Source: Myxococcales bacterium | GTDB lineage: Bacteria > Myxococcota_A > Polyangia > Polyangiales > Polyangiaceae | Length of the DNA: 64,000 bases | NCBI GenBank assembly: GCA_009692485.1 | Contig: SHZB01000001.1 | Location: 48,960 to 112,959, forward strand | Reading direction: 5' to 3' | In this document: positions 16,733-59,023 of the stretch, piece after piece | Layout of the letters: every line of letters begins with the position of its first letter | Numbering within the stretch: the first letter of the stretch is position 1 | Program-made: the position numbers and the translations under genes | The notes under the pieces: model-generated | What the model was told of the DNA's origin: nothing | What the model saw: the letters and a program-made list of their open reading frames with translations, nothing else | Databases searched by the model: none

Positions 16733-16793
16733 CGCGGCGGGGGCTAGCGCGCAGGGCTTGAGCAAACCGGATCGCGCTCGTAACAGCCGGCGC

Positions 16794-18857: not shown

Positions 18858-18960
18858 CCGTAGCTTGCCAAGCAAAAAACTTTTCGTGGCGCGTACGTAC
18901 TCACAAAACGAAAAACGCGGTCGGGTGCCGAAGCAACCCGTACCGCGCATCGAGTCATTC

Positions 18961-19092
18961 GCAGAAGCGGAGGGACCTCCAAGAAAACCGAGAGTCCTCC
19001 GCAGAAGCGGAGGGACCTCCAAGAAAACCGAGAGTCCTCCGCAGAAGCGGAGGGACCTCCAAGAAAATCGAGAGTCCTCCGCAGAAGCGGAC
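18961..19092. repeat. 3.3 x 40-bp tandem repeat; each unit junction forms a 7-bp hairpin
   Basis: GCAGAAGCGGAGGGACCTCCAAGAAAACCGAGAGTCCTCC at 18961, 19001 and 19041, plus a partial unit at 19081. The inverted repeat is CCTCCGC-AGAA-GCGGAGG. The array starts 4 nt after the stop of the Lys-rich mini-gene. Confidence 0.9.
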
Positions 19093-34311: not shown

Positions 34312-34377
34312 GCTCCCGTGCCCCGGCGGGTACAAGAAACCGTGGCTCCCGTGCCCCGGCGGGTACAAGAAACCGTG
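34312..34377. repeat. 2 x 33-bp perfect tandem repeat in a divergent promoter region
   Basis: GCTCCCGTGCCCCGGCGGGTACAAGAAACCGTG at 34312-34344 and 34345-34377. Confidence 0.95.
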
Positions 34378-34396
34378 GTAGCTTCCGCCGCGGGCG

Positions 34397-35872: not shown

Positions 35873-35983
35873 GCTCGCCGCCTCGCGCCGCAGTTTGCAT
35901 CATGAGCACCCGAGCGCTCTGTTAGCTTCAGCGCCGTACGCCAACACCACGCAGCGCGGCGATTGAGCGCCCACTGGAGTTTC

Positions 35984-37267
35984 ATGAAGCATCCCTCGAA
36001 GGTCCCGGCCGGGGCCGTGTCGCTCGCGCTCGTTCTCGTCGGTTGCGGCGATGGCCAGGGTGGCTCCCCGAGCCAGCCCGACGTCACGGGAACTACCTAT
36101 TACCAAGCGGCGAAGCCCATCCTCGATGGCCGCTGCGGCAAGTGCCATCACGAAGGCGGCATTGGCCCCTTCACGCTCGACTCCTTCGCCGGTGCCAAAG
36201 AGGTCGCCCTCGCGGTCAAGAGCGCCGTCGAGCAGCGCACGATGCCGCCGTGGTTGGCGAGCGATGGCTGTGCCGAATACGTCGGCGATCCCTCGCTCTC
36301 CGACGAGCAAATCGCGACGATCTCCGCCTGGGTTGACGAGGGCGCGCGCGAGGGCGATCCGCTCACCGAGGCCGCGAAGCTAGCGCCGGTCGTGAACACC
36401 GGGCTGAGCCGCACGGACCGCACGCTCGAGATGCCGGTCGACTACGTCGCGCAGGTCGAGCCCGACGACTACCGCTGTTTCGTCATCGATTGGCCTGAGA
36501 CCGAGACGACGTACGTCACCGGATTCCGCGCAAATCCGGGCACGTCCGAGGTCGTGCACCACGTGATCGCGTTCCTCATCGAGCCTGCGGATGTCGCCGC
36601 GATCGAGAAGCTTGACGCCGGCGAAGAGGGCGCTGGGTATACCTGTTACGGGGGCCCGGGGAACAACGAGGCACGCTGGATCGGCTCGTGGGCTCCTGGC
36701 GGACTCGGCTACGACTTCGTCCCCGGCACCGGCATCGAGATCGTGGCTGGCGCGAAGGTCGTCTTGCAGGTTCACTACAACACGCTGAATTCTGGCGCGC
36801 TGCCGGACCGCACCTCAATCGAGTTGAAGCTCGATGCGACCGTCGAGCGAAAGGCCTGGGTGCAGCCATGGGCGAATCCAAGTTGGCTCGACGGCGGCAA
36901 GATGATCATCCCGGCCATGACGGATGGCGTCGGCCACGAATTCGGCTTCGATCCGACGCCGTTCTTATCGGATGGCAAGCCGCTGCGGCTCTACTCGGCG
37001 GCGCTCCACATGCATGTCCTCGGACAGACCGCGCGCACCGAGATCCGACGCGCCGACGGCTCTACCGAGTGCCTGCTCGACATTCCGCGCTGGGACTTTC
37101 ATTGGCAGGGCGCCTACCGGTTCGCCGAGTCGAAGCTGCTCTCGCCGGGCGATGAACTGCACCTCCAGTGCACGTGGGACAACCCCACGAACAAGGACGT
37201 CGACTGGGGCGAGGGAACGACCGACGAGATGTGTCTCGGTGCGTACTACCTCGCGATCGACGAGTAG
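35984..37267 (+). CDS. lipoprotein with N-terminal cytochrome-c (PSCyt1-like CxxCH) module and PHM/DBH-like copper type II monooxygenase domain
   Basis: MKHPSKVPAGAVSLALVLVGCG lipobox. PILDGRCGKCHHEGG...MPPW. His/Met ligand pattern EVVHHV, LQVHYN, LHMHVL and TTDEMC, with spacings of about 71, 78 and 72 aa. Confidence 0.7.
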   Translation: MKHPSKVPAGAVSLALVLVGCGDGQGGSPSQPDVTGTTYYQAAKPILDGRCGKCHHEGGIGPFTLDSFAGAKEVALAVKSAVEQRTMPPWLASDGCAEYVGDPSLSDEQIATISAWVDEGAREGDPLTEAAKLAPVVNTGLSRTDRTLEMPVDYVAQVEPDDYRCFVIDWPETETTYVTGFRANPGTSEVVHHVIAFLIEPADVAAIEKLDAGEEGAGYTCYGGPGNNEARWIGSWAPGGLGYDFVPGTGIEIVAGAKVVLQVHYNTLNSGALPDRTSIELKLDATVERKAWVQPWANPSWLDGGKMIIPAMTDGVGHEFGFDPTPFLSDGKPLRLYSAALHMHVLGQTARTEIRRADGSTECLLDIPRWDFHWQGAYRFAESKLLSPGDELHLQCTWDNPTNKDVDWGEGTTDEMCLGAYYLAIDE

Positions 37268-37299
37268 CGCGGAGTCAGCGTCAGCGGCCAAACGCGCTC

Positions 37300-39087
37300 T
37301 TATTTCGCGATCGACGGATAGCGCGGAGATAGCGGCCAAACGACCTTGCCGCCCTCGACGACCGCCGGCCATGCATCGACGTAGCGCGAGGGATGGCCGG
37401 GCGCGGAGTCGTCGACCCATACGGCGCTTCCGGTGCTGCGCGGGCGCACGTCGATGTGCACGAATTTACTGTTCGGGTAATAGCCGCAACCCGTGTCCGA
37501 CAATGCCCAGCATGCCGCCAAGAGATCTTCGTTCGTGACACCCTCGATCGCGATGTCGAGCGCACGACCGCTCGCGTGCAGGCTCTGATGCCCTCGCGCG
37601 GAGCCTCGGATCGCGGGTCGGTAGCCGCTGTAGAGATAAACGGGGCGCGCATGGAATCTGCGCGAAAGCTGGCTCAATACCCACACGAGCCTCGGCTCCA
37701 AGAGACGCACGCCTGGCACCCACTCGCCGCGCTCCGTATGCGGCGCCGGCTCATCGGGAAGCTTCGACACCGCCGCGGCGTCGACGGGGCGCGCGAGGAT
37801 GCTGAGCTCTGCGAGGGCGTCGTCGGCGAGTGATCCGTCGCAACGCACGAGCAAGATCTCGCGCTGTTCTTGCCCAAGTCTTCGTACGATCGTGGCGCGC
37901 TCACGGCACTGCCACGCTGGGATTGGATAGGCCAGCGGCGCGAGCGCAGTCCACAACGATTCGAACGCGAACGATGGAAACGAGGCCCCCAGCGTGCACC
38001 CACCGACTCTGCAGCCCGTGAGCCTCAGGACCGACTCGGCCCAGCTCGGCTCGAGTCTTCGAAGCCAGGGCGGCACCAACGCATCATCGACGCGGAGCGC
38101 TTCTTCGCGCGCGCTTCGCACGAACCAGTGCCGTTCATCGCCCAGCAGCGGGAACCCTCGCGGCTCGTCGAGCTGCCGCGAAAGCCAGGCATCTTCGCTC
38201 GGCATTTGTGACGAAACGCCCGTATTTTCCGCCCAATCGAGCGTACTCAAGAGGCGGAAGCGCCAGCGACCGTAGTCGCCGTGACGGTAAGTCGCGTAGA
38301 AAGTATCGGGCCTTCCCTCCGGACGCCGAGAAGGCTCGAGCAGCGCGAGGCCGGGTGCTTCGTCGAGCCGCAGTGGCAACGCCCGCTTCTCCGGCGGCGG
38401 CCATGCCCACGCAGAGGAAGTCACCATCGACGGCGCGAGCGCAAACGCGAGCCCGACCATCGCGAGGCGAATGAATCGTGCGAGCTCATCGCGGCGAACG
38501 GCTCCCTCGCGCAGCACCCGCGCCGGCCCTCGGGGAGCCGTCAAATCCACAATCGTCGAGGGCGATGCGGCTCCCGTGACTCCGCCATCCACGACGTAAG
38601 CCAAGCGTCCGTCGAGCCCGAGCAGCACCTCATCGGCTGAGCGCGCTGGCGGCTCGCCCGAGAGGTTGGCGCTGGGCGCGGCGATCGCGAACGGGCAGAG
38701 CGCGAGCAGCCGCATCGCGACCGGATGCGAAGGCGCACGCACCGCCACGCTGCTCCCTCCGGCGGCGACGGATTCGAGGACATGCGCCGCCTTCGGCAAG
38801 ACCAGCGTGAGCGGACCTGGCCAGAACGCCTCCGCGAGACGCGCGGCCTCATCGGGCCAGTGAGCGACGAACCCTCGCGCCTGCGCCACGTCTCGCACGT
38901 GCACGATGAGCGGCTTGGTCTCCGGTCGCCCCTTCGCGCTGAAGATCGCGCGGACCGCGGCATCGTCATCCGCGCGCGCGCCGAGGCCGTAAACCGTCTC
39001 GGTCGGAAACGCTACGAGCTTGCCCTCCGCGAGCGCCGACGCCGCAAGCCCGAGCGACGCGTCACTGTCGTCGAGCCGAACGGTCAA
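37300..39087 (-). CDS. tsaC: continuous ORF: L-threonylcarbamoyladenylate synthase (TsaC/YrdC) domain, then a signal-peptide-like segment and a DUF882/peptidase M15A-like domain
   Basis: The N-terminal 200 aa include GKLVAFPTETVYGLGARADDD..KGRPETKPLIVHV..GPLTLVL. Residues 210-230 are MVGLAFALAPSMVTSSAWA. The C-terminus is VYLYSGYRP..GHQSLHASGRALDIAI..KFVHIDVR. The TTG start overlaps the dnaB stop (TTGA). An internal ATG lies at 38460. Confidence 0.7.
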   Translation of the reverse strand: MTVRLDDSDASLGLAASALAEGKLVAFPTETVYGLGARADDDAAVRAIFSAKGRPETKPLIVHVRDVAQARGFVAHWPDEAARLAEAFWPGPLTLVLPKAAHVLESVAAGGSSVAVRAPSHPVAMRLLALCPFAIAAPSANLSGEPPARSADEVLLGLDGRLAYVVDGGVTGAASPSTIVDLTAPRGPARVLREGAVRRDELARFIRLAMVGLAFALAPSMVTSSAWAWPPPEKRALPLRLDEAPGLALLEPSRRPEGRPDTFYATYRHGDYGRWRFRLLSTLDWAENTGVSSQMPSEDAWLSRQLDEPRGFPLLGDERHWFVRSAREEALRVDDALVPPWLRRLEPSWAESVLRLTGCRVGGCTLGASFPSFAFESLWTALAPLAYPIPAWQCRERATIVRRLGQEQREILLVRCDGSLADDALAELSILARPVDAAAVSKLPDEPAPHTERGEWVPGVRLLEPRLVWVLSQLSRRFHARPVYLYSGYRPAIRGSARGHQSLHASGRALDIAIEGVTNEDLLAACWALSDTGCGYYPNSKFVHIDVRPRSTGSAVWVDDSAPGHPSRYVDAWPAVVEGGKVVWPLSPRYPSIAK

Positions 39088-41881: not shown

Positions 41882-41986
41882 GAATCCTCCTGGACTAACG
41901 GCCCCGTGGCTTCCGTCATGAGGCGCAGCGGCCTCGTGATTGCCATGGAGCGAGGGATCGAAAAAGTCCGTCAACCCTGTTGCTCT

Positions 41987-42025
41987 GCGCGTTCGCTCAG
42001 CGCGTTCGCTCAGCGCGTTCGCTCA
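41987..42025. repeat. 3 x 13-bp tandem repeat starting on the pth stop codon
   Basis: GCGCGTTCGCTCA x3. The minus-strand TGA is at 42023-42025 (the real stop), 42010-42012 and 41997-41999. Confidence 0.9.
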
Positions 42026-42661
42026 ACCAGTCGGCGGGGCTTCGGGGGGGCGGCTCTTTTTCGGTCGAGTGTTGCTTGTTTTCATTGCGGCTTCGGGGCC
42101 GCGGGCGGCGATGTCTAGCACACTCTTCATCGCAGATTGCAAGCAATGATCGAGCTCGGCGCACTCTCCTGCGCTGAAGTCCGAGAGCACCCAATCGGCG
42201 ACGTCCCCGCGGAAATCTGCGGCGGGCCGTCCGATGCCAATCCGCACGCGGAGGAAGTCTCCGGTGCCGAGGCGCTGCATGATCGACCGCAAACCGTTGT
42301 GCCCCGCGTGCCCGCCGCCAAGCTTGAGCCGCACCTCGCCGAACGGCACATCGAGCTCGTCGTGCACCACGATGATCGAGCCGGGCTCGATCTTGTGAAA
42401 CACCGCGCACGGCTGCACTGCGTCACCCGACAGGTTCATGTACGTCTGCGGCTTGAACAGCCACGCCTCTTCTTTGCCGAGCGACGCGCGTGCAAGCTCA
42501 CCGGAAAATTTGCCGCGAAACGCCTCCGCGCGGGCGCCCCGGGCGAGCTCGTCCACCACCATGAAACCGACGTTGTGCCGGTTGGCCGCGTACTTCTTCC
42601 CGGGGTTGCCGAGGCCGACGACGAGCAGCATGAGCGTGAAGCCGAGGGGCCTTGCCGTCAC
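42023..42661 (-). CDS. pth: peptidyl-tRNA hydrolase
   Basis: LLVVGLGNPGKKYAANRHNVGFMVVDELA and GHNGLRSI. An alternative start lies at 42631. Confidence 0.92.
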   Translation of the reverse strand: MTARPLGFTLMLLVVGLGNPGKKYAANRHNVGFMVVDELARGARAEAFRGKFSGELARASLGKEEAWLFKPQTYMNLSGDAVQPCAVFHKIEPGSIIVVHDELDVPFGEVRLKLGGGHAGHNGLRSIMQRLGTGDFLRVRIGIGRPAADFRGDVADWVLSDFSAGECAELDHCLQSAMKSVLDIAARGPEAAMKTSNTRPKKSRPPEAPPTG

Positions 42662-44649: not shown

Positions 44650-45564
44650 ATGAACACGTTGTTCGCCGCGCTCAGCGACGTGGGGATGGTCCGCGAGCGC
44701 AACGAGGACTCGTTCGTCATCTACCCGCGCCACCGCGTCGCGGTCGTGGCGGACGGCATGGGCGGCCATAGCGCTGGCGATCTCGCAAGCGCGCTGGCTG
44801 TCACCGCGTTCGAGGGTTTTTTTCGCCAGTCCGCGAGCGGCGGACGAGCCCGGCCGATGCCCTACGATCACGAGCTCTCGGAGGAGGAGAACTTGATCGT
44901 CACGGGGGTCCGGCTCGCCAATCATCGCGTGTTCGAGCGCGCGCGCGAGATCGCTTCGGACACCGGAATGGGTACCACCATCGTCGTCCTTGTGTTCACG
45001 CCCGACGGTCGCCAGGTCGTGATCGGGCACGTAGGCGATAGCCGCTGTTATCGGCTGCGCGAGGGCCAGCTCACACAGCTGACCGCCGACCATTCGCTTG
45101 CAAACGACATGAGTGAGGTCGCGCCGTGGATGAGCGCGGAGCAAGTTCGCGAGCTGCCTTCGAACTACATCACGCGGGCGCTCGGCGTCGGGCCGGATGT
45201 TCTCGTCGACATCCTGACCCTTGAAACCGAGCCTGAAGATCTCTACCTGCTGTGCTCGGATGGCTTGTCGGGAATGCTCAGCGATGAGGCGATCCAGGTC
45301 ATCCTGGAAGGTCACACGGATCTCGAAGGCTGCTGCGACCAGCTCGTCGCCGGCGCCAATCAGGCTGGCGGTACGGACAACATCACCGTGGCCATCGCCC
45401 GCGTCGAGTCGGCGGCAAGCCGCGAAGAACGCGATCTCCTCGGCGAGGACGAGATCGTTCCCGTCAGCCAGCGCGATGGGCTCGGTGCCGTAGAGGGCGG
45501 GGCCGTCCTTTGCTTGCGCAAAACCGCGAGCGGCAAATCAAGGCTCGGCGACTTCGACGACTGA
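44650..45564 (+). CDS. PP2C-family Ser/Thr protein phosphatase
   Basis: LSDVGMVRERNEDSF, VADGMGGHSAGDLAS, LLCSDGLS and GGTDNITVAIA. Confidence 0.9.
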   Translation: MNTLFAALSDVGMVRERNEDSFVIYPRHRVAVVADGMGGHSAGDLASALAVTAFEGFFRQSASGGRARPMPYDHELSEEENLIVTGVRLANHRVFERAREIASDTGMGTTIVVLVFTPDGRQVVIGHVGDSRCYRLREGQLTQLTADHSLANDMSEVAPWMSAEQVRELPSNYITRALGVGPDVLVDILTLETEPEDLYLLCSDGLSGMLSDEAIQVILEGHTDLEGCCDQLVAGANQAGGTDNITVAIARVESAASREERDLLGEDEIVPVSQRDGLGAVEGGAVLCLRKTASGKSRLGDFDD

Positions 45565-45565
45565 T

Positions 45566-45621
45566 TTCAGAAAACGAAGTTCAGAAAACGAAGTTCAGAA
45601 AACGAAGTTCAGAAAACGAAG
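45566..45621. repeat. 4 x 14-bp tandem repeat (TTCAGAAAACGAAG) between convergent genes, containing the stop and last codons of the minus-strand gene
   Basis: Units at 45566, 45580, 45594 and 45608. The minus-strand TGA is at 45609-11 (the real stop), 45595-97, 45581-83 and 45567-69. The array begins 2 nt after the PP2C TGA. Confidence 0.95.
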
Positions 45622-46376
45622 CGATCGTCGAGGGCAAGCACGTGGAAATTCGAGCGCGCTAGCTTCGCGCATTCGCGCTCGATCTCGGCCTGACACGGTG
45701 GCTTCATGTGATAGAGCATCGTCGGCAAATCCGCTGGCGCGTTGAGCTTGCGGAGGTCCGCGGCGAGCGTCTGCGGCGTGTGATGGCCGCTCGCGCTGGC
45801 GAGGTGTTGCTGCCCGTTCGGAAAGCTCACCTCGATGAGCAGGGCGCGCAGATTTGCCGTTTGGTTCAGGACCTCGAAGAGCCGGTCCGTCGGGCCGGTG
45901 TCACCGCTCACCGCGATCACGCTCTTGCCGTCATCGACGAGGAAGCCGCAGGTATCGACCGTGTGGCTCACCGCGACGGCCGTCACCTGATGGCGCCCAA
46001 TGAGCGTCGGCGCCTCGAGCGCCAGCTCGCGGTAAACGATCGTCGGCTCAGTCGGCGAAGGAATGCGCGTGAAGTCGGGCCACAGCCGGTCATTGAAGAA
46101 GTGTCGGCGCAGGCTGTCGAGCGTCTCGCGCGTGCCGCAAACCGAGAGCGGCGGATGGCCAAGCTGGCAGCGATTGTCCGCAAGCGTCGCGAGATCTCGC
46201 ACGTGATCGAGGTGCGAATGGGTGACGAGCACAAACTCAAGACGCCCCTGCTCGGCGAGCTCGAGGCGGCTCGTGAGCGCGCCAGCATCGAGCGCGAGGC
46301 GTTCGTCGATGAGGAACGAGGTTGTGCGGTGCCGCGGCGACTCACCGCCGTGACAGCCGAGAACCCTAAGCTCCAT
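45609..46376 (-). CDS. MBL-fold class II 3',5'-cyclic-nucleotide phosphodiesterase-like protein
   Basis: MELRVLGCHGGES... and THSHLDHVRDLATL, matching the class II PDE signature H-x-H-L-D-H-[LIVM]. Start ATG 46376, alternative 46412. Confidence 0.65.
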   Translation of the reverse strand: MELRVLGCHGGESPRHRTTSFLIDERLALDAGALTSRLELAEQGRLEFVLVTHSHLDHVRDLATLADNRCQLGHPPLSVCGTRETLDSLRRHFFNDRLWPDFTRIPSPTEPTIVYRELALEAPTLIGRHQVTAVAVSHTVDTCGFLVDDGKSVIAVSGDTGPTDRLFEVLNQTANLRALLIEVSFPNGQQHLASASGHHTPQTLAADLRKLNAPADLPTMLYHMKPPCQAEIERECAKLARSNFHVLALDDRFVF

Positions 46377-48915: not shown

Positions 48916-48974
48916 TTGCGCGACGACGATCGAACTGAGATCGAGAGGACACCATGAAGAAGCTGTTTCGACAA

Positions 48975-50436: not shown

Positions 50437-51465
50437 TCAGGGCTTCGGGTGCGCGAGGAAGAAGTCGAACAAGGCAGCCTTGAACTCACCCTTGAAGCCC
50501 GGCAAATGCTGGCTTCCGACGAGCTTCCACTGCTCGACGAGGCTCGCGCCCTCGCAGCCGATGTCCCAGCGCGTCACCTTCGTCTCGCTGCCCACGATGA
50601 CCGTGAGATCTTTGTCCGCGGGCGTCTCGTCGGCCGTGAGCGAGCAGCCGTTCAGCATGGCCCAGGTCTCCGAAGTCTCGAGCGCGCCCGGGTACTCCCC
50701 GCCGAAGAGCTTGCCGCCTCCATAGAGGATCGTCGGATCGAGCGAGCCATGGACGACGAGGGCAGTGACCGGCTCGCTGGGCTTGCATTGCGTCTCGTCT
50801 TTGTACGTCGCGCCCGCGAGCGAGCCGAAGGCGGCGATGGCGTCGGCATGTTCACACGCCATGCGATGGGACATGAAGCCGCCGTTCGAGTGGCCGAAGA
50901 AATAGACGCGCTTGGCATCGACCGTGTACGCCTGCTTGATCTCGTCGATGACCTGACGCAGGTAGCCGGAGTCGTCCACGTCACTGCCGTTGAAGTTGCA
51001 GCATGCGTCGGTGGCATTCCAGAATCGCTGTCCGCGCTTGTCGAAGGTGCCATCGGGATACGCGTACAAAAAGCCGTGTTTGTCGGCCATTTCGGTGAAG
51101 CCGAGGTAAATCTCCTGCACCTTGCCGCTGGCCGTGTAGCCGTGCAGCAAGATCAACAGCGGCGCGGGCTCGGCTGGATCGTAGCCGGGCGGAACGTGCA
51201 CCGTGACCGGCCGGTCGCCGCCGATCACGCCGTCGAAGCCGCTGCCCGAGCTCGGATTCGAGGCACCCGCGCCGCCAGTGCCCGTGCCGTTCGCATTCGT
51301 GCCGTTCGTGCCCGAGCTTGCCCCTTGCCCAGCGCTGCCGCCGCCCGCGCCGCCCGCACTCGTGTGCGTCTCGAACCCGGTCGTCGTGTCCGTCCCGCAG
51401 CCGAGAATGCCGGCCGCCAGAAGTGCGGCCGCGAGTGTCTGAAATGCCAGTCTCGGTAATGCCAT
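50437..51465 (-). CDS. secreted esterase, PHB-depolymerase/LpqC-like alpha/beta hydrolase (lipoprotein)
   Basis: MALPRLAFQTLAAALLAAGILGCG lipobox. PLLILLHGYTASG and VYFFGHSNGGFMSHRMA (GxSxG). The track ORF extends in frame to ATG 51609 through 15-bp repeats. Confidence 0.7.
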   Translation of the reverse strand: MALPRLAFQTLAAALLAAGILGCGTDTTTGFETHTSAGGAGGGSAGQGASSGTNGTNANGTGTGGAGASNPSSGSGFDGVIGGDRPVTVHVPPGYDPAEPAPLLILLHGYTASGKVQEIYLGFTEMADKHGFLYAYPDGTFDKRGQRFWNATDACCNFNGSDVDDSGYLRQVIDEIKQAYTVDAKRVYFFGHSNGGFMSHRMACEHADAIAAFGSLAGATYKDETQCKPSEPVTALVVHGSLDPTILYGGGKLFGGEYPGALETSETWAMLNGCSLTADETPADKDLTVIVGSETKVTRWDIGCEGASLVEQWKLVGSQHLPGFKGEFKAALFDFFLAHPKP

Positions 51466-51589
51466 TGTTGGAATTGCCCTAATAGGTAATGCCCTAATCG
51501 GGAATGCCATAGTCGGGAATGCCATAGTCGGGAATGCCATAGTCGGGAATGCCATTGGCGGTAATCCGAGCCTCGGTATTGCCACCTTC
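51455..51589. repeat. about 9 x 15-bp tandem repeat (GG(G/T)AATGCCATAGTC) covering the start-codon neighbourhood of the esterase gene
   Basis: Units every 15 bp from 51455 to 51589. Three are perfect copies (51500-51544). On the minus strand in frame they read PTMAF repeats with ATGs at protein positions 19, 24, 29, 34 and 49 of the long ORF. Confidence 0.9.
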
Positions 51590-51617
51590 GTCGGTCGCGT
51601 ACGGGACATGGGCCGAG

Positions 51618-52901
51618 CTACATATCAGACTTCGCGGACGGCGCGGCTCGGCGTTCGGCGGCGCGGGCGTGGGCTTCGAGCCCTTCGAGGCGGGCCAGAA
51701 TAGCGGCGTCGCGTGCGAGTTCGCGATCATTGCCAGTACCGTCGAGACGCAAGAAGGTGCGGACACGAAGAAAGGTCATCACCGAGAGTCCGCCGGTGTA
51801 GCGCGCCGTTCCGCCCGTGGGCAGCACGTGATTGGGACCGGCACCGTAGTCTCCGAAGACCTCCGCGGAGCCCGGGCCGATGAAGATGGCGCCGTAATGA
51901 GAGAGCCGCTTCGAGCGCTCGTGTGCGTCGGCGGTCATGACCTCGAGGTGCTCGGGCGCGAGCTTGTCCGACGCGGCGATGCCTTCATCGGGCGTGCACA
52001 CCAACGCGAAGCCGTTTTCGAGCGCGCGGGCCGCGAGTTCCCGAGTCGAGAGCCCTTCGAGCTGAGTCGCGAGCGCACGATTGACCGCTTCGGCATGCGC
52101 CCGCGTGGTCGTGATCACGATCGGCAAGGCGTCGCTCGCATGCTCGGCTTGCGCCAGCAGATCGGCGGCGATCAGCTCGGGATCAGCGGCCTCGTCCGCG
52201 AGCACGACCAGCTCGCTTGGACCGGCGAGCATATCGATCGCGACGCGGCCATGGACGAGCTTCTTGGCGGCGGTGACCCAGCGATTTCCGGGGCCGACGA
52301 TGATGTCGACGGCCGGGATCGAGGCCGTGCCGTAAGCCAGCGCGGAGATGGCGTGGGCACCACCTGCGGCGAGCAAACTATCGGCGCCCGCGAGCGCGGC
52401 GGCGGCCATCGTGACTTGTGTAGGCCGGGGGCTCGCGACCCACACCGACCGAACGCCGGCGACGCGCGCGGTGATCGCGGTCATGAGCACGCTCGAGGGC
52501 AGGGGATAGCCGCCGCCGGGCGCATAACATCCCGCGCGCTCGACCGGGGCTATCGTGTGGCCCGCGCTGCCACCCGCGACGGCGAGCTCGAGTGGGGCGA
52601 GCGACGCGCGTTGGGCCTCGGCAAATCGCGTGATTCGCGCTGCTGTACGCTCGAGCACGCCGCGCGCATCGGAGCCGAGTGACGCGAGCGCATAGATGAG
52701 CTGTGCTCGCGGAATGACGAGCGCATCGGTGTCGCCGAGGCCGTCGTGCTGGCATGCGTAGCGACGAAGCGCGGCATCACCCCCGGCGTGAACGTCGTTC
52801 ACGATTTGGCTAGCAGCCGCGAGCGTGTCGGTGTCGATGGCCGCGCGCCGCTCGACGAATCGCTCGAGCTCCGCAAGCGCGATGAGCTTCAAGCCACTCA
52901 C
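51618..52901 (-). CDS. hisD: histidinol dehydrogenase
   Basis: GCYAPGGGYPLPSSVLM, IIVGPGNRWVTAAKK, LLAQAEHASDA and GDYGAGPNHVLPTGGTARY. The GTG start at 52901 overlaps an upstream TGA. The rest of the 725-aa track ORF is an upstream shadow. Confidence 0.92.
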   Translation of the reverse strand: MSGLKLIALAELERFVERRAAIDTDTLAAASQIVNDVHAGGDAALRRYACQHDGLGDTDALVIPRAQLIYALASLGSDARGVLERTAARITRFAEAQRASLAPLELAVAGGSAGHTIAPVERAGCYAPGGGYPLPSSVLMTAITARVAGVRSVWVASPRPTQVTMAAAALAGADSLLAAGGAHAISALAYGTASIPAVDIIVGPGNRWVTAAKKLVHGRVAIDMLAGPSELVVLADEAADPELIAADLLAQAEHASDALPIVITTTRAHAEAVNRALATQLEGLSTRELAARALENGFALVCTPDEGIAASDKLAPEHLEVMTADAHERSKRLSHYGAIFIGPGSAEVFGDYGAGPNHVLPTGGTARYTGGLSVMTFLRVRTFLRLDGTGNDRELARDAAILARLEGLEAHARAAERRAAPSAKSDM

Positions 52902-52972
52902 TTCGCGTCTCCCTCGCGCCGCTCGACGAATCGCTCGAGCTTCGCGATCGCGATGAGCTTCAAGCTGCTCAC
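52827..52972 (-). repeat. 71-bp tandem duplication of the hisIE-stop/hisD-start junction, creating a 24-codon chimeric mini-ORF
   Basis: TCACTTCGCGTC occurs at 52898 and 52969. CGCGCCGCTCGACGAATCGCTCGAGCT.CGC...CGCGATGAGCTTCAAGC is present twice. The mini-ORF 52898-52972 reads VSSLKLIAIAKLERFVERREGDAK. Confidence 0.9.
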
Positions 52973-54222
52973 TTCGCGTCCCCGGGCCGGCGCGTGATCT
53001 TGCGTGCGCGTGCCTCGAGGATCTGCTCGACCTCGGTGAGCGAGACGCCGGCCTTCGCCATCCGGACGAGCGTGAAATAGAGGACATCGGCCGCCTCGTG
53101 CGCGACCTCGTCGTGACTCGCCGCAAGACCAAGCTCGCCCGCCTCTTCGATGAGCTTCTTGCGGAGCAGCTCGGGCTCGTGGAGGAGCCGCGCGGTGTAC
53201 GAGCCCGCTGGTGCGTCGGTGGCGCGGCCGCGCAGCACCTCAGCGAGCGCGGGCATGCCGCCGAGCGCACCCCAACAGCTCGTTGTGCCGGTGTGGCAAA
53301 AGCCCGGGCCTGCCTGCACGACGGTGAAGCGCAGCGCGTCTCTGTCGCAGTCGAGGTCCACGCGCACGAGCCGTTGTGTGGCGCCGCTCGATGCGCCCTT
53401 GTGCCAGAGGCCGCGTTGGCGCGAATGGTAGATTCCGGTGCGGGTCGCGATCGCAGCACGCAGACTCTCGCGACTCGACCAGCATTGTCCGAGCGCGCGC
53501 CCGTGCTCATCGACGACGACCGTCGCAAAGAGGCCGTCCGCGCGATCGCTGACGAGCGGTGCCGCGAACGCATCGCCGAGCTCCATGTGGCCTTGGTAGA
53601 GCGCCATGCCGACTTGCGCGTCGATGCCGAGTTTGTCGAGCGCAGCGACTTCCGCGACCGTGGTGACGCCTCCGGCGATCGTGAGCGAAGCGTCTCCGGC
53701 GGCGTCGCGCAGCTCTCTTGCGCGCTCGAGATCGGTGCCTCCGAGCCGGCCCTCGCGCTCGACGAAGGTGACGAGAAACCCGCCGACGACATCACGCAAT
53801 TCGCGCATCCGCTCGGGCACGCTCGCGCCGGTCTTGGTGCGCCAGCCCTCGACGACGACCTCTCCGTCGAGCGCGTCGAGCGCCGCGATCAGCCGTGATT
53901 TCGGCAATTGACGCAGCAGCTCCGGAGTTGCGGCGGTGCCGAGGATGAGCTTCTCCGCGCCGGCATCGAGCGCTTCGACAGCACGCGCGACGCTGCGGAT
54001 CCCGCCTCCGACGCGGCAGCGTGCGACCCGGCACACTCGCTCGACCAGCGCGCGGTTGTCACCCGTGCCGAGCGCCGCATCGAGATCGATCAACGCCAGC
54101 TCGCCGATGACCCCGAAGCGCTCCGCGATCGGCAGCGGGCAGCCGGCCTCGAGCGCCAAGTCGCGCCCCCCGACGAGCTGCACGGTCTGGCCGCCCATCA
54201 AATCGATTGAAGGAATAATCAC
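52969..54222 (-). CDS. hisA-hisIE: trifunctional fusion HisA (ProFAR isomerase) - HisI (PR-AMP cyclohydrolase) - HisE (PR-ATP diphosphatase)
   Basis: N-terminal IIPSIDLMGGQTVQLVGG...GGGIRS...TIAGGV (HisA barrel). Middle YHSRQRGLWHKGASSGATQRLVRVDLDCDRDALRFTV..CHTG (HisI). C-terminal SYTARLL..KKLIEEAGE...EAADVLYF (HisE). The GTG start overlaps an upstream TGA. Confidence 0.85.
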   Translation of the reverse strand: MIIPSIDLMGGQTVQLVGGRDLALEAGCPLPIAERFGVIGELALIDLDAALGTGDNRALVERVCRVARCRVGGGIRSVARAVEALDAGAEKLILGTAATPELLRQLPKSRLIAALDALDGEVVVEGWRTKTGASVPERMRELRDVVGGFLVTFVEREGRLGGTDLERARELRDAAGDASLTIAGGVTTVAEVAALDKLGIDAQVGMALYQGHMELGDAFAAPLVSDRADGLFATVVVDEHGRALGQCWSSRESLRAAIATRTGIYHSRQRGLWHKGASSGATQRLVRVDLDCDRDALRFTVVQAGPGFCHTGTTSCWGALGGMPALAEVLRGRATDAPAGSYTARLLHEPELLRKKLIEEAGELGLAASHDEVAHEAADVLYFTLVRMAKAGVSLTEVEQILEARARKITRRPGDAK

Positions 54223-54288
54223 ATTCGCACCGGGCTCTGTTCCGGCGTCGAGTACGGCGCCGCAAGGATCACATTCGCACCGGGATTT
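54219..54288 (-). repeat. 50-bp-spaced duplication of the hisF-stop/hisA-start junction (CCCGGTGCGAATGTGAT x2), creating a 17-codon mini-ORF
   Basis: TCACATTCGCACCGGG occurs at 54219 and 54269. The mini-ORF 54219-54272 reads VILAAPYSTPEQSPVRM. Confidence 0.9.
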
Positions 54289-55027
54289 CCGCGGCGGCGA
54301 GCGCGCGCTTCAGATCGCCGACGGTGACTTCGCCGTCGTGAAGGATCGATGCCGCGAGCACTGCGCTTGCCCCCGCGCGCACGGCCTCGAGCATGTGCTG
54401 TGCGTGTGCGGCGCCGCCCGACGCGACCACCGGGATGCGTACCGCGCTCGTGACAGCCCCGATCAACTCGATGTCGTAACCGGCGCGCGTGCCGTCGCGA
54501 TCCCAGCTCGTCAGCACGATCTCTCCGGCGCCGCGTGACGCCGCCTCTCGTGCCCACGCGACCGCGCAGCGCGAGGTTCGCTCTTTGCCAGAGCGCACGA
54601 CCAGCTCCCAGCCCGCGCCATCTTGGCGGCGCGCGGCATCGAGCGCGAGCACCGTGCATTGACTGCCGAAGGTCCTGGCGAGTCGGTCGAGCAGCGACGG
54701 CTCGAGCGCCGCTGCCGTGTTGCTCGCGACCTTGTCGGCCCCCGCCTCGAGCAGAGCGCGCGCATCTTCGATGGTGCGCACGCCGCCGCCCACCGTGAGC
54801 GGAATTCCGAGGACCGCGCGCACCCGACGCACCGTCTCGGTGGCATTGCCGCGCCCTTCCGGCGTCGCCGAGACATCGAGCATCACGAGTTCGTCGGCAC
54901 CTTGCGCCTCGTACGCGAGGGCACGCTCGGTCGGATCACCCGCATCGCGCATCCCGCTGAAGCGCACGCCCTTCACGACGCGACCGGCGTCGATGTCGAG
55001 GCACGGGACGACGCGAATCGTCAGCAC
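54269..55027 (-). CDS. hisF: imidazole glycerol phosphate synthase cyclase subunit
   Basis: VLTIRVVPCLDIDAGRVVKGVRF, GADELVMLD, IPLTVGGGVRT and IPVVASGGA. The GTG at 55027 overlaps the hisH stop (GTGCTGA). Confidence 0.93.
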   Translation of the reverse strand: MLTIRVVPCLDIDAGRVVKGVRFSGMRDAGDPTERALAYEAQGADELVMLDVSATPEGRGNATETVRRVRAVLGIPLTVGGGVRTIEDARALLEAGADKVASNTAAALEPSLLDRLARTFGSQCTVLALDAARRQDGAGWELVVRSGKERTSRCAVAWAREAASRGAGEIVLTSWDRDGTRAGYDIELIGAVTSAVRIPVVASGGAAHAQHMLEAVRAGASAVLAASILHDGEVTVGDLKRALAAAEIPVRM

Positions 55028-55632
55028 GCGCGCACCTTCGCGAGCCAGCGCCCGAGCAGCGCGTGTCCCCATGCGCCGCTCAGCTCGGGATGAAATTGAC
55101 ACGCGAGCAACGCCCCCTTTTCGAGCGCGGCGACGAAGGGACTTCCGTGCACGGCGAGCGCCCCCGAGTAGCCAGCGGGGAGCGCATCGAGCCGATACGA
55201 GTTCGCGAAATAGGCATGCCCGCTCGCGAGCAGCGTCGAGTCCAGGGCGGGCTCGACCAGGTTCCAGCCGAGCTGCGGCACGACCAGCCCCGCGCGATCT
55301 TCAAATCGTCGCACCGCCGCGTCGATCACGCCGAGGCCGGAAATTCCGGGACTTTCTTCGCTTTCGCGACACAAGAGCTGAAGGCCGAGACACACGCACA
55401 ACAGGGCTCGGCCCTCACGCGCGCGCTTCGTGAGCGCCACGGCGAGCCCCGTCGCCTCGAGCCGCGCCATGCCCGCACCGAACGCGCCGACCCCCGGCAA
55501 CACCACGCGCTCGGCGGCGGCGACGACGCTCGCATCGGTCGACAGCCGGGGCGCGGCACCGACGCGAACGAGGGCGGCGCACACCGAGGCGAGGTTCGCC
55601 GTGCCGGTATCGACGACGATGACCTCGCTCAC
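55021..55632 (-). CDS. hisH: imidazole glycerol phosphate synthase glutamine amidotransferase subunit
   Basis: VIVVDTGTANLASV, LPGVGAFG, LCVCLGLQLL and FHPELS. The GTG at 55632 overlaps the stop of the last mini-ORF. Confidence 0.9.
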   Translation of the reverse strand: MSEVIVVDTGTANLASVCAALVRVGAAPRLSTDASVVAAAERVVLPGVGAFGAGMARLEATGLAVALTKRAREGRALLCVCLGLQLLCRESEESPGISGLGVIDAAVRRFEDRAGLVVPQLGWNLVEPALDSTLLASGHAYFANSYRLDALPAGYSGALAVHGSPFVAALEKGALLACQFHPELSGAWGHALLGRWLAKVRAC

Positions 55633-55775
55633 GAGAGCGCCTCGCCGCTCGGAGCGAACGCGCATGTCTTCATCGCAAGCACCGCGTCATCGAAGGCACC
55701 GCGTCATTGCAAGCACCGCGTCATCGCAAGCACCGCGTCATCGAAAGCACCGCGTCATCGAGAGCACCGCGTCAC
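55629..55775 (-). repeat. six 17-bp tandem units plus one 45-nt ORF forming seven chained mini-ORFs between hisB and hisH
   Basis: Plus-strand CATCG(C/A)A(A/G)GCACCGCGT units. The minus-strand stops at 55772, 55755, 55738, 55721, 55704, 55687, 55670 and 55629 each overlap the next GTG/ATG by 4 nt. Confidence 0.95.
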
Positions 55776-56371
55776 AAGACGCCCTTCGTGCTGGCGATGT
55801 CCGTGCCGGTGATCGCCACGGCTTGCCGCAGCGCGACTGCCAACGCTTTGAACGCGGCCTCGGCCCGGTGATGATCGTGCTCGCCCTTGAGGACCTCGAC
55901 GTGCAGCGCCGAGCGCGACGCCATCGCGAGCGACTGCATGACGTGGGTCACACACTCGCACGAGAGGTTGCCGAGCTTCTCGCGACGCAGCCCGAGATTG
56001 ATCGCCGGCCACGGGCGCCCCGACAGATCGATCACCGCGCGGGCCAGCGCCTCGTCGAGCGGCGCATACCCATGACCGAAGCGCGCGATCCCGACCCGCT
56101 CGCCCAGCGCTTGATCGAGCGCCTTTCCGAGCGCGATCCCGCAGTCTTCGCTCGTGTGGTGATCGTCCACCTCGAGATCCCCCTGGCAGCTCAGCTCGAG
56201 ATCGAAGCGCGCGTGTTTGACGAGGGTCGTGAGCATGTGATCGAGAAACCCAATCCCGGTCGCGATGCGGCTCACGCCGGTGCCGTCGAGGTTCAGCGAC
56301 AAGGCCACGCTCGTCTCGTTGGTCTTGCGCGCGATCGTGGCCTGTCGTGGCGGGGTGGCGATGGCGTTCAT
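55772..56371 (-). CDS. hisB: imidazoleglycerol-phosphate dehydratase (monofunctional)
   Basis: ARKTNETSVALSLNLDG, GIGFLDHML, DDHHTSEDCGIALG and GEHDHHRAEAAFKA. ATG 56371 overlaps the mini-ORF stop as ATGA. The upstream TTG at 56392 is less likely. Confidence 0.93.
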   Translation of the reverse strand: MNAIATPPRQATIARKTNETSVALSLNLDGTGVSRIATGIGFLDHMLTTLVKHARFDLELSCQGDLEVDDHHTSEDCGIALGKALDQALGERVGIARFGHGYAPLDEALARAVIDLSGRPWPAINLGLRREKLGNLSCECVTHVMQSLAMASRSALHVEVLKGEHDHHRAEAAFKALAVALRQAVAITGTDIASTKGVL

Positions 56372-56430
56372 GATTCGTCGATGGTGCTCCAAAAACTGAA
56401 GTCGAGCGCTCGGTGTGCGATGGCGTTCAT
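56368..56430 (-). repeat. 59-bp-spaced duplication of the hisC-stop/hisB-start junction (ATGAACGCCATCGC x2), giving a 20-codon mini-ORF
   Basis: The mini-ORF MNAIAHRALDFSFWSTIDES starts on the ATGA overlapping the hisC-HAD stop (56427-29). It ends on the ATGA overlapping the hisB start (56368-71). Confidence 0.9.
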
Positions 56431-58133
56431 AGCCTCGTCGAGCCCGCTCCGCGAAGGGAAGTCAGCCGCTCTAGCTCATCGAGCGTGGACAAGAGTCGTC
56501 CCGCGCCGGCCGCGACGAGTCCATCGCCGTTGTAGCCGAGCGGCACGACCCCGGCCGCGCGGGCTGCGAGCACGTCATCGCGGGTGTCGCCCACCAGCCA
56601 CGCAGAGCTCACGTTGAGCAGGGCGAGCGCGCGCAGCACCGGCTCGGGGCTTGGCTTCAGCGGCGCGTCCTCCATGCACACCAGCGTCTTGAACAAGGGC
56701 GCGAGCTCGAAGCGCGCGAGGAAGCGTTCGGCGTCGGCGCGCGGTCGGCCGGTGACGATGCCAAGCGGCAGACGGGCGGCGAGGCGCTCGAGCAATTCAC
56801 GCGCACACAAGAGCGTCTCTTGTTCGTGAAGTCCCGCAATTCCCTGCGTTTCGTCGCCTTGGTAGAGCAACTCGAAGCGCGCCTTCACGTCCGCGAACGC
56901 CGCTGTGACCCCGTGCTCAAGGAGCAGCGCGTGGGTCAGGTGCCAGTCGTTGTTCGCGTCGCCCGCGGCCTTTTTTCGCGCCACGTCTTCGTGTGTCACG
57001 ACTGCGCCGAAGCTCGCTGCGGTCGCAATGATCGCCTCCCGATACGACCCGCGCACGTCGGCGAGCACACCGTCCATATCGAAGAGCAGCGCCTCGGGGG
57101 CGAGCACCGCATCGAGCGCCGCCGAGAGCCGCGCGAAGGCTGGTTCATCCGACGGACACGTGATGCGCGCCATGCCGTCGAGCTTGCCGTGGCCCGGCCA
57201 GATGCGCACGGCGATCCCAAGTCCCGCGAGCCCGTCGCAGAACCACTCGGCGTCCCTCGGCCGCGCGAGGACGAAGTTTGCCTGCGACGGGTGCGCCACG
57301 CATCCGAGCCTCTCGAGTCGCTCGCCGAGCCGCGTTCGCTCGATCTTTACCTGCGCGACATGGCGGCGCATGTGCGGCTCACCCTCGTCGAGCCATCGCA
57401 TCGCGAGCGCCACCGCCGGCGAGCTGACGGCATACGGTTGCCCCGTCCCACGCAGCCAGTCGATGACCAAGGGCTGCGCGATGACGTAGCCGACCCGCAG
57501 TCCGGCGAGGCCCCACGCTTTCGACAGCGTGCGAAACACGAGCGCGTTTTCGTATGCGAGCGCCGTGTGCGTGAGGTCTTCGTCGGCGAACTCGGCATAC
57601 GCGAGATCGACGAACAGCGCCGCATCGCCCGCGGCCTCGGCCACGCGCCGAAGCTCGCCCGCGGTGATCGCCGCGCCGGTAGGATTGTTCGGCGTGACGA
57701 GCGCGACCGCCCCCGTGTTTGCGTTCAGCTCGCGCAGGACCGCATCCACGGGATACGCGCCCGTTGGCCACGGCACCTCGCGCACCGTCGCGCCCGCGAG
57801 CGCCGCGTAGCGCGGAAGCATCTCGAAGGTGGGCACCGGCAACACGAGCTCGCGACCCGGCCACAACAGCGCTTGGCATGCCCGCGCGAGCGCATCGTCG
57901 GCGCCGCAGGTCGTCAAGACGCAGTCGGGCCCGACTCCGAGGCGAGCCGCGAGCTTGCGTTCGAGCGCGCGCGCGTCGGGATAGCGCCGCAACAGCTCTG
58001 CTGACTCCAGCGCAGCGAGCAAGCCCACGGGTGGCAGCGGCCCCTCGTTGCTGTCGAGCTTCAAGTCGATGGGCGCACCGTGCCGCGGCACGTGATAGCT
58101 GCCCTGGCGCGCGATGACGGGATTCGGCTTCAT
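56427..58133 (-). CDS. hisC: histidinol-phosphate aminotransferase fused to a C-terminal HAD-superfamily phosphatase domain
   Basis: The N-terminal ~355 aa have DLKLDSNEGP, NPNNPTG and FRTLSKAWGLAGLRVGY (PLP Lys). The C-terminal ~210 aa have LLFDMDGVLADV, GIVTGRPR and LVGDTRDDVLAARAAG (HAD motifs I-IV). An alternative GTG start at 58154 overlaps the hisG stop. Confidence 0.88.
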   Translation of the reverse strand: MKPNPVIARQGSYHVPRHGAPIDLKLDSNEGPLPPVGLLAALESAELLRRYPDARALERKLAARLGVGPDCVLTTCGADDALARACQALLWPGRELVLPVPTFEMLPRYAALAGATVREVPWPTGAYPVDAVLRELNANTGAVALVTPNNPTGAAITAGELRRVAEAAGDAALFVDLAYAEFADEDLTHTALAYENALVFRTLSKAWGLAGLRVGYVIAQPLVIDWLRGTGQPYAVSSPAVALAMRWLDEGEPHMRRHVAQVKIERTRLGERLERLGCVAHPSQANFVLARPRDAEWFCDGLAGLGIAVRIWPGHGKLDGMARITCPSDEPAFARLSAALDAVLAPEALLFDMDGVLADVRGSYREAIIATAASFGAVVTHEDVARKKAAGDANNDWHLTHALLLEHGVTAAFADVKARFELLYQGDETQGIAGLHEQETLLCARELLERLAARLPLGIVTGRPRADAERFLARFELAPLFKTLVCMEDAPLKPSPEPVLRALALLNVSSAWLVGDTRDDVLAARAAGVVPLGYNGDGLVAAGAGRLLSTLDELERLTSLRGAGSTRL

Positions 58134-58150
58134 GGCAGCGCGCTGCCCGC

Positions 58151-59023
58151 TCACGGCACGATCTGCATCAGGCGCGACACCACGATATCGGTGCCGCCGC
58201 GGGCCTTGAGCTCGGGGATGAGCCGCGGGAGCAACTCGCGTGGAACCGCGGCTTTTACGGCAAATGCGTCCGAACCGGCGAGCGGCGACACGGTCGGCTG
58301 GCGCATGCAAGGCAAGGCCGCAATCACGCTCGCGAGCGCGCTCGCCGCCACGTTCACTTCGAGCATGACGCGCTTCCTTGCGTCGAGCACCGACCGCAAG
58401 ACCAGCACCAGCTCTTCCAGCGCGGCGCGTTTGTGCGGCACCTCGAGCGCCCGGCGACTGGCATAGAGGCGCGTGGAAGAACGCAGCAGCTCATCGATGA
58501 TCGCCAGCCCGTTCTGCGCCAGCGTCGCGCCCGTGGCGGTGTTGTCGACGATGCAGTCGGCGTCCTCCGGCGGAAACACCTCGGTCGCGCCATACGAGCG
58601 CACGAAGGTCGCATCGAGCCCGCGCCGCGCGATCCATCCGCGCGCGAGCCGTTCGTACTCGGAGGCGACGACGACCCGGCGGGTCGGCAGCGCGCCATCG
58701 ACGAGCAGCTCTTCGGGTGCTGCCGCCACGATCCGCACCGGATCGAGCTCGGTGTCGAGCAGCTCCACGACGTCGGCCTCCAGCTCTTCTACCCAGTCGG
58801 CCCCGCCAAACCCGACATCGCGCGTGCCGATATGCAGCATCTCGATGATGTTCTGCGGCTTCAGCACCTTGGTGACCGTGTCCGGCAGCGACACCACCGG
58901 TCGATAGCCGCGCTCCGCGAGCCGCACGCCGATCCCCGCGTCCTCGAGCAGCGTGACGACGCCGCGTTGCATATGCCCCTTCGGCAGGGCGAGCTTGAGA
59001 GTGGGATCGAATGAACTAGGCAT
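58151..59023 (-). CDS. hisG: ATP phosphoribosyltransferase (long form)
   Basis: LKLALPKGHMQ, DVGFGGADWV and a C-terminal regulatory domain. ATG at 59023. Confidence 0.9.
   Translation of the reverse strand: MPSSFDPTLKLALPKGHMQRGVVTLLEDAGIGVRLAERGYRPVVSLPDTVTKVLKPQNIIEMLHIGTRDVGFGGADWVEELEADVVELLDTELDPVRIVAAAPEELLVDGALPTRRVVVASEYERLARGWIARRGLDATFVRSYGATEVFPPEDADCIVDNTATGATLAQNGLAIIDELLRSSTRLYASRRALEVPHKRAALEELVLVLRSVLDARKRVMLEVNVAASALASVIAALPCMRQPTVSPLAGSDAFAVKAAVPRELLPRLIPELKARGGTDIVVSRLMQIVP

Follow-up and report, generated by a model that had tools for sequence, protein, structure and literature searches.

The histidine biosynthesis genes hisB and hisH of a Myxococcales bacterium (Polyangiaceae) are separated by six tandem copies of a 17-nt unit and a unique 41-nt stretch; each unit is a six-codon open reading frame (ORF) whose start and stop codons overlap those of its neighbors, and an unbroken series of overlapping stops and starts leads from the stop codon of hisB to the start codon of hisH. 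The two genes lie in a metagenome-assembled genome (MAG; assembly GCA_009692485.1, contig SHZB01000001.1), of which a stretch of 64,000 nt (positions 48,960 to 112,959, hereafter the window) was analyzed. All coordinates are those of the window; the his operon and the array are read on its minus strand. The array is probably a lineage-specific, minisatellite-like insertion of 143 nt that split an ancestral overlap of hisB and hisH, arose by a generic process of duplication, and persisted by virtue of a phase compatible with translation. Of most interest, however, is not so much the array itself as a pattern that extends across the operon: three further junctions have been split, and all four are bridged in the same fashion.

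Anatomy of the hisB-hisH junction

The product of hisB ends STKGVL (GTC TTG TGA), its stop codon (55774-55772) being contained within a GTGA; the exact 199-aa product is also present in Logan run SRR8561391. From this tetranucleotide the six units follow head to tail with the consensus (G/A)TG ACG CGG TGC nnn CnA TGA, and every unit encodes (V/M)TRC(S/F/L)(R/Q) with an NTGA overlap at either end. The last link, of 14 codons (MKTCAFAPSGEALS), comprises the unique 41-nt stretch. Reading of the frames and a scan for relays (series of ORFs that end on NTGA) both count eight NTGA overlaps, the first at the stop of hisB and the last at the start of hisH. A preliminary description of this DNA had given the end of hisB, the six units, the last ORF and the hisH start, and its coordinates and sequences all hold on the minus strand.

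Tandem Repeats Finder (TRF) reports the array with a period of 17, 6.2 copies, 90% matches, no indels and a score of 168, and a separate repeat search also recovers it. With up to three mismatches allowed, the 17-nt unit has six matches in the window – all at 55674-55775 – compared to 0.88 expected, and none of 100 shuffles gave six. The tandem repeat itself is thus far beyond chance and, with two or more head-to-tail copies of a unit of 10-100 nt, is of the minisatellite or variable-number tandem repeat (VNTR) type. Five distinct variants are present among the six units.

In the public annotation hisH begins at an in-frame ATG (55665), which sits 4 nt past the stop of the sixth unit and gives a protein of 214 aa (a form also present in Logan). 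Homologues of HisH have lengths of 197-207 aa and align over 96-100% of a 203-aa form: for this reason GTG 55632 is favored as the start.

A Logan contig (SRR8561391) is identical to the window over the tail of hisB and the first 2.6 units and then ends; a second (SRR8561390) resumes at 55667, 3 nt past the last TGA of the array. The repeat is therefore present in reads, while the count of six units comes from the MAG assembly. Because every 31-mer of the array is unique and the longest internal repeat measures 25 nt, the copy number in the MAG is assemblable and credible. That the two Logan contigs (L081, ending at its position 1071, and L082, starting at its position 1) break within or just after the array despite unique 31-mers may reflect either low coverage or heterogeneity of the population at the array.

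These breaks in short-read contigs of two runs, together with the fact that the source is a MAG, are what could be said for the repeat or its copy number having been made by the assembler. The base-for-base match to the tail of hisB and 2.6 units argues otherwise, as do the distinguishable units with their unique 31-mers; moreover, diverged duplications at three other junctions (below) cannot come from an assembler. We regard an artefact of assembly as exceedingly improbable.

The array interrupts an ancestral overlap

The same order of his genes is found in MAGs of Polyangia, Myxococcota, Bradymonadales and other groups, and in 30 of 53 scorable loci hisB and hisH overlap directly or abut. 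In two of these (L011 and L013) the junction reads CTG TGA GC, from which GTG AGC provides the same first two hisH codons as in the window. Excision of the 143 nt that separate the two GTGAs leaves GGGCGTCTTGTGAGCGAGGTC, which is near the L013 junction. Since relatives share the direct overlap, the window is read as carrying an insertion of 143 nt (6 × 17 + 41) in an ancestral GTGA overlap. Elsewhere in the operon relatives have an overlap of -4 – the commonest intergenic distance in prokaryotes – at hisC-hisB, at hisF-hisA (eight of nine) and at several hisIE-hisD junctions, and four of them (L001, L025, L026 and L005) join hisH to hisF at -7 by ATGCTGA or ATGTTGA.

The array was seen in no relative among the related his loci compared. 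The closest other HisH among 5.8 billion proteins is 72% identical, with nothing between 72% and 100%; in a search of genome contigs with HisB the best match was 70% identical among the matches listed, and the nearest loci belong to Polyangia and Myxococcota MAGs. Look-ups of the exact proteins (with alternative starts) returned only two short Logan contigs, and a scan of metagenomes with a 20-mer composed of the hisB tail plus unit gave one chance match, in an unrelated coaD-like gene.

Two gene fusions of the operon are conserved across the related MAGs. The HisA-HisI-HisE fusion (52969-54222; His_biosynth + PRA-CH + PRA-PH) is found in MAGs of Myxococcota, Polyangia, Bradymonadales and Planctomycetota (L001-L026), and the HisC-HAD fusion (56427-58133; an aminotransferase joined to a HAD phosphatase, presumably a histidinol-phosphatase) in the same MAGs.

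Three further junctions have been split by duplication

The relay scan covered all 34 co-directional junctions of the window. All four spaced junctions of the his operon are bridged by ORFs with an NTGA overlap at either end. Among the other spaced junctions, one of 21 was flagged (16729 to 16758); this case is coincidental, with ATG 16794 most likely the real start. The probability of four of four his junctions against one of 21 others is about 4e-4 (hypergeometric), an estimate that takes 16729 to 16758 as a relay and includes among the others many that may lie outside operons.

At hisC-hisB the decoy ORF is joined by overlaps to both genes, to the hisC stop through its ATG (ATGA) and to the hisB ATG (56371) through its TGA; an exact repeat of 14 nt (56358-56371 and 56417-56430) recurs at a distance of 59 nt, and the 59-nt insert is similar to both the tail of hisC and the head of hisB (p<=0.001 each). 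The decoy at hisF-hisA begins with a GTG that overlaps the hisF stop and ends with a TGA that overlaps the hisA GTG (54222); here an exact repeat of 17 nt (54218-54234 and 54268-54284) recurs 50 nt apart, and the 50-nt insert is similar to the tail of hisF (p<=0.001). The clean copy is at hisIE-hisD, where a GTGA junction has been duplicated in tandem: its decoy of 24 codons (52972-52898) reads VSSLKLIAIAKLERFVERR followed by EGDAK – that is, the N-terminus of HisD and then the C-terminus of HisIE – and its TGA overlaps the hisD GTG (52901). Homology to the junction is found for the 59-, 50- and 71-nt inserts alike (p<=0.001), and these three are demonstrable local duplications of the junction itself. 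A separate repeat finder recovers all three duplications as well.

A derivation of the 17-mer or of the 41-nt stretch from the tail of hisB or the head of hisH finds no significant support in sequence similarity, and the 41-nt stretch is not significantly similar to the repeat unit either. A comparison of unit 1 with the end of the spacer gives an unconvincing p~0.03, and 3.5% of random 41-mers from the window score equally.

Table 1. Features of the his operon, its array and its bridged junctions in the 64-kb window.
Feature	Position	Strand	Description
his operon	51618..58972	-	hisG, hisC-HAD fusion, hisB, hisH, hisF, hisA-hisI-hisE fusion, hisD; Pfam matches for all seven products
hisC-hisB bridge	56368..56430	-	20-codon decoy ORF MNAIAHRALDFSFWSTIDES; spacing 59 nt
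hisB (imidazoleglycerol-phosphate dehydratase)	55772..56371	-	199 aa; ATG 56371; Pfam PF00475, E=5e-59
hisB-hisH junction			spacing 143 nt; seven mini-ORFs
Tandem array	55670..55775	-	six full 17-nt units and a partial seventh; TRF, pattern search, repeat finder, frame reading
Full units	55775-55759, 55758-55742, 55741-55725, 55724-55708, 55707-55691, 55690-55674	-	
Last link	55629..55673	-	14-codon ORF MKTCAFAPSGEALS; ATG 55673; TGA 55631-55629 overlaps hisH GTG 55632
GCGAGG, Shine-Dalgarno-like	55640..55645	-	7 nt upstream of hisH GTG 55632
hisH (glutamine amidotransferase subunit)	55021..55632	-	203 aa; GTG 55632; Pfam PF00117; N-terminus VSEVIVVDTG
hisH-hisF overlap	55021..55027	-	7 nt (GTGCTGA); intact, as in relatives
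hisF-hisA bridge	54219..54272	-	17-codon decoy ORF VILAAPYSTPEQSPVRM; spacing 50 nt
hisIE-hisD bridge	52841..52982	-	71-nt tandem duplication of GTGA junction; 90-92% identical; TRF period 71, 1.9 copies, score 239

All links share one phase

If a junction of the NTGA type is duplicated, then the decoy start would read the first codons of the downstream gene and thereafter the copied tail of the upstream gene. A period of 2 mod 3 would put that tail in its native frame, and the decoy would stop on the copied stop codon, which overlaps the true start. The lengths of the links – 17, 41, 50, 59 and 71 nt – are all 2 mod 3. In the array the period of 17 places an ATG 18 nt (six codons) before the next TGA, so that one NTGA per unit makes the chain automatic; the argument of the preliminary description, that such a period maintains a relay whatever the copy number, is correct.

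Random duplications were simulated on four reconstructed junctions. The relay was kept in 33% of all duplications: in 99.7% of those whose period was 2 mod 3 and in none of the rest. When the period was 1 mod 3, 79% of decoys ran on past the true start for 10 codons or more. The chance that all events fall in phase is (1/3)^4 to (1/3)^5, or 0.012 to 0.004. The 50- and 59-nt inserts carry small indels, and their lengths today are still 2 mod 3. The pattern suggests a selective filter that would retain termination-reinitiation, although it falls short of proof.

Translation across the array

Of 14 overlapping gene pairs tested, 13 proved to be strictly coupled (PMC6728339), and coupling is reduced by 40-80% at a distance of +14 nt and is nearly gone by about 20-38 nt of untranslated spacer (PMC10666635). 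Because coupling is lost over so short a distance, an untranslated gap of 139 nt between hisB and hisH would end it; the series of -4 overlaps offers a path. A ribosome reinitiating at the codon that overlaps the hisB stop would translate a six-codon ORF, terminate on the next start, and repeat the process as far as GTG 55632; no decoy frame would cross the hisH start, and ribosomes would remain on the spacer throughout. A series of seven reinitiations is unlikely to work efficiently, and part of the initiation on hisH is probably de novo, from its own modest Shine-Dalgarno (SD) sequence. Given that inefficiency, the relay would appear to be what makes the insertion tolerable – mainly a means of preventing harm, and not an evolved regulator. 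Two things are inferred here: use of the relay by ribosomes, and selection, not chance, as the cause of its phase.

The SD-like GCGAGG of hisH forms a predicted anti-SD duplex of -6.5 kcal/mol, which lies in the top 10% of random positions. A strong SD in each unit was considered and rejected, since the GGUG of the unit yields an unremarkable -5.3 kcal/mol (top 23% of random positions).

The preliminary description had further proposed that the array might attenuate or tune HisH relative to HisB. Predicted RNA folding in the array is no better than that of shuffled sequences (z=+0.37), there is no Rfam match at the array, no promoter or terminator was found there on the minus strand, and the mini-ORFs contain no His codons: none of this favors such a role. 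An attenuator of the leader-peptide type known from his operons was rejected on the same grounds (no His codons, no folding signal, no minus-strand terminator and no Rfam match) and also because the array is situated between the third and fourth genes, whereas such a leader, rich in His codons and followed by alternative terminator and antiterminator hairpins, precedes the first gene.

A more specific version of the proposal has the number of 17-mers vary as in a contingency locus, with the count setting the ratio of HisH to HisB by multiplying inefficient reinitiations. By arithmetic the relay is kept at any copy number, arrays of mycobacterial interspersed repetitive units (MIRUs, discussed below) do vary in copy number, and the fact that both Logan contigs break at the array despite unique 31-mers could mean that the population is heterogeneous. 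Low coverage, however, explains the breaks equally well, and no variant count was seen in the exact-protein look-ups, the protein search (nearest HisH 72% identical) or the metagenome scan. The divergence of the units (90% identity; five variants in six) argues against rapid turnover. In addition, the partner that HisH must match is HisF, to which it is still coupled at -7, and not HisB, and this genome places arrays in every type of intergenic region. An adaptive tuner therefore seems improbable.

A genome rich in tandem repeats

The window contains 43 distinct tandem arrays (TRF), most of them non-coding and together occupying nearly every intergenic gap. If a strong array is defined by a TRF score of 80 or more, then 20 are present in the 64 kb compared to seven in 260 kb of related loci of high GC content: a density some 11 times greater. 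Arrays sit between genes of all three arrangements (divergent, convergent and co-directional), and within genes the strong arrays have periods divisible by three. An all-against-all comparison of the units and junction inserts across the 64 kb showed units to be specific to their loci, with no dispersed family among them. Because arrays litter the window, the process behind the 17-mer array is taken to be generic, and their density points to a tendency to short tandem duplication throughout the lineage.

Is the phase a product of chance?

Several observations weigh against the reading of the array as an insertion that persisted because of its phase. A run of NTGA overlaps is, in itself, no evidence independent of the repeat. 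In Markov-random sequence of the same composition, with ATG, GTG and TTG all counted as starts, the longest NTGA chain has on average 5.5 links and at most 10, any TGA that follows A, G or T being scored as an overlap. An array at 3185-3293 (a 28-nt unit with a 14-nt sub-period, about four copies), which occupies the divergent intergenic region upstream of the gene at 1994-3169(-), has a GTGATG in each unit and forms an NTGA chain of four links that never reaches the ATG at 3169; it shows that chain-forming arrays can arise by chance. Other arrays begin on a stop codon and yet form no relay, one example being the period-13 array at 41971-42022: its unit ends in CTGA, which provides no start, and 13 is 1 mod 3. 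The hisB-hisH insert, in contrast to the other three, has no significant similarity to its own flanks (p=0.09-0.66), and its derivation from the junction by duplication is thus unproven. The six substitutions between units leave the ATGA intact, which is not significant (about 0.2-0.4, an estimate). Among relatives with a spaced hisB-hisH junction and no intervening gene, about two in seven are bridged, which is no enrichment and near the neutral one third. Predicted starts in this genome pair with the anti-SD no better than random positions do. Lastly, the mod-3 statistic is a post hoc one, drawn from only four or five events in a single MAG.

The relatives with bridged junctions, all without a tandem repeat, are L024 (3591-3655; a 20-codon ORF at a spacing of 59 nt), L068 (ORFs of 36 and 9 codons) and L059 (an ORF of four codons).

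What is informative about the chain is where it lies: it begins exactly on the hisB stop and finishes exactly on the hisH start.

The idea of a termination-reinitiation relay, central to the preliminary description, is partly supported. It gains from the other three his junctions, which are bridged alike, and from the published loss of coupling with distance; it loses the run of NTGA overlaps, which are common in random sequence. The preliminary description had also recognized that the idea would suffer if the repeat were an artefact, or if hisH were expressed from a promoter or SD of its own. The Logan contig with its 2.6 units speaks against the former and no promoter was found, while the modest GCGAGG is a probable site of independent initiation.

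The same observations can be assembled into a purely neutral account, according to which the array is a product of slippage, its 2-mod-3 phase a coincidence, the initiation of hisH entirely de novo from its own SD, and the mini-ORFs irrelevant. The process of duplication is generic in the window, NTGA chains are frequent in random sequence, the array at 3185-3293 makes a chain with no target, the GCGAGG of hisH is in the top 10% of random positions, only about two in seven spaced relatives are bridged, and the phase probability of about 0.004-0.012 is only post hoc. Such an account must nevertheless explain why every one of the four spaced his junctions is bridged, as against one of 21 elsewhere (that one coincidental), and why the older duplications of 50 and 59 nt are still 2 mod 3 despite indels. 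Coupling at overlaps is, besides, usually strict and lost with distance, which means that four uncompensated splits should be costly. On this balance the neutral account appears unlikely, though it retains appreciable weight.

Comparison with known systems

Repeats that act as coupling spacers were, according to the preliminary description, without known precedent. Such a precedent exists in the MIRUs of mycobacteria. The ORFs of MIRUs reportedly overlap the upstream stop and the downstream start alike. According to a 2025 review (PMC12548453, citing Supply et al. 1997), MIRUs insert at start codons, and their internal ORF is coupled to the gene at -4 nt, with a likely 'minimal impact on expression'. 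The senX3-regX3 spacer of M. tuberculosis contains three MIRUs of 77 bp, or two of 77 bp and one of 53 bp, and the copy number differs among BCG strains (PMC4213456, PMC9392950).

The likeness to the hisB-hisH array is considerable: in each case tandem repeats stand between two co-transcribed genes, and the unit contains an ORF in the orientation of the genes that ends at -4 nt from the next start. The 77 and 53 bp of MIRUs are also 2 mod 3, as are 17, 41, 50, 59 and 71 here, and any copy number therefore keeps the relay. The proposed outcome – little effect on downstream expression, as far as the review describes it – is the same. The differences are equally plain. The unit has 17 nt (six codons) rather than 46-101 bp, and length alone excludes it from membership; it is not dispersed in the 64 kb searched, whereas MIRUs are a dispersed family; the sister cases in the his operon are local duplications of junctions rather than insertions of a mobile unit; and the host is a Myxococcota MAG, not a Mycobacterium. 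Promoter activity has been reported for the MIRU region of senX3-regX3, in contrast to the hisB-hisH array, which has no promoter-like site. The array follows the logic of MIRUs, yet it is no MIRU.

It may still be supposed that the 143-nt insert is a copy of some MIRU-like mobile element, dispersed in the genome and targeted to start codons. Whereas the other three inserts resemble their flanks, no such homology is detectable for this one; MIRUs behave in this manner, at least in the account of the review; and there is an identity of 13 nt between the 41-nt stretch and the period-13 array (41982-42025). This last match is weak, and relative to the genes its orientation is opposite; within the 64 kb neither the unit nor the unique stretch recurs, the arrays of the window share no family, and the sole metagenome match to the junction 20-mer is a chance match in an unrelated gene. 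We consider a mobile element very improbable. The 13-nt identity, taken by itself, is probably due to chance.

With termination-reinitiation as described for overlapping genes (Huber et al. 2019, PMC6728339; PMC10666635) the array shares overlapping stops and starts, all eight of its links being canonical -4 overlaps. Relatives use overlaps of -4, -1 and -7 at the same his junctions. Known cases differ in that they involve two real genes and a single reinitiation, compared to up to seven here by way of non-functional ORFs of six to 14 codons. We know of no measurement of the efficiency of such serial reinitiation.

A related notion is that of 'ribosome delivery' by upstream ORFs, among them mycobacterial small ORFs (PMC12548453; Shell et al. 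2015 as cited there): in that review's description, a short non-functional ORF passes the ribosome to a start at -4 nt, as would occur here. Those ORFs, as the review presents them, are located in a 5' leader and depend on de novo initiation, whereas the ORFs of the array are intercistronic and would be fed by reinitiation from hisB. Finally, the array resembles minisatellites and VNTRs produced by slippage, being composed of head-to-tail units within 10-100 nt in non-coding DNA and one of many in this genome. Most of these are without a defined relation to the frames of both neighbors; the hisB-hisH array differs in joining the upstream stop to the downstream start by means of its 41-nt link.

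Other repeats of the window

Downstream of hisD a coding array with a 15-nt unit (51428-51592), one of the strong arrays within genes, specifies about seven MAFPT-like repeats at the N-terminus of a protein resembling esterases and polyhydroxybutyrate (PHB) depolymerases. The ATG of this esterase-like gene (51609) is only 8 nt past the hisD stop, and the gene may be co-transcribed with the his operon.

The period-13 array (GCGAACGCGCTGA, about 3.4 copies, 41971-42025) begins on the stop of the gene at 42023-42661(-), and the gene downstream of it (start 41866) has a strong AGGAGGA SD. Between convergent genes, and directly after the TGA of the gene at 44650-45564(+), are four perfect copies of the 14-nt TTCAGAAAACGAAG (45552-45621). 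Read on the minus strand, every unit has a TGA, and the array supplies the stop and last codons of the gene at 45609-46376; a change in copy number (14 is 2 mod 3) would change the C-terminus of its product. A direct repeat of 30 nt (37251-37334; 87% identical, spacing 54) extends across the ends of two convergent genes: one copy includes the TAG stop of the gene at 35963-37267(+), and the other is within the 3' end of the gene at 37300-39087(-). Two further repeats, near-perfect ones, occupy larger non-coding gaps: an array at 18952-19091 of a 40-nt unit (3.5 copies, 97% identity) with a palindromic core, CCTCCGCAGAAGCGGAGG, and a perfect duplication of 33 nt at 34312-34378, which ends 19 nt before the start of the gene at 34397-35872(+).

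Evolutionary implications

If the shared phase of the his junctions is a matter of chance, then the hisB-hisH array is no more than a common minisatellite in a MAG that is unusually rich in repeats. If the phase has been selected, the operon provides evidence from sequence alone that stop/start coupling limits which insertions a genome tolerates. The principle evident in MIRUs – that repeats carrying relay ORFs are harmless within operons – would then extend to a distant phylum, to a unit of six codons and to local duplications.

It is possible, if rather less than probable, that this is a lineage of hyperactive duplication in which overlapping junctions are repeatedly duplicated and only duplications of 2 mod 3 survive. 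The his operon would in that event amount to a natural selection experiment, showing strong purifying selection on coupling and the passage of ribosomes through up to seven mini-ORFs, and minisatellites of 2 mod 3 may form a general and convergent class of translation-neutral intercistronic DNA, represented by MIRUs in Actinobacteria and by the present array in Myxococcota. The period, modulo three, of duplications at overlapping junctions is a simple and falsifiable criterion by which selection on termination-reinitiation can be assessed genome-wide. Constructs of zero to six units, moreover, make a natural series for determining the efficiency of each reinitiation event, which is still debated.

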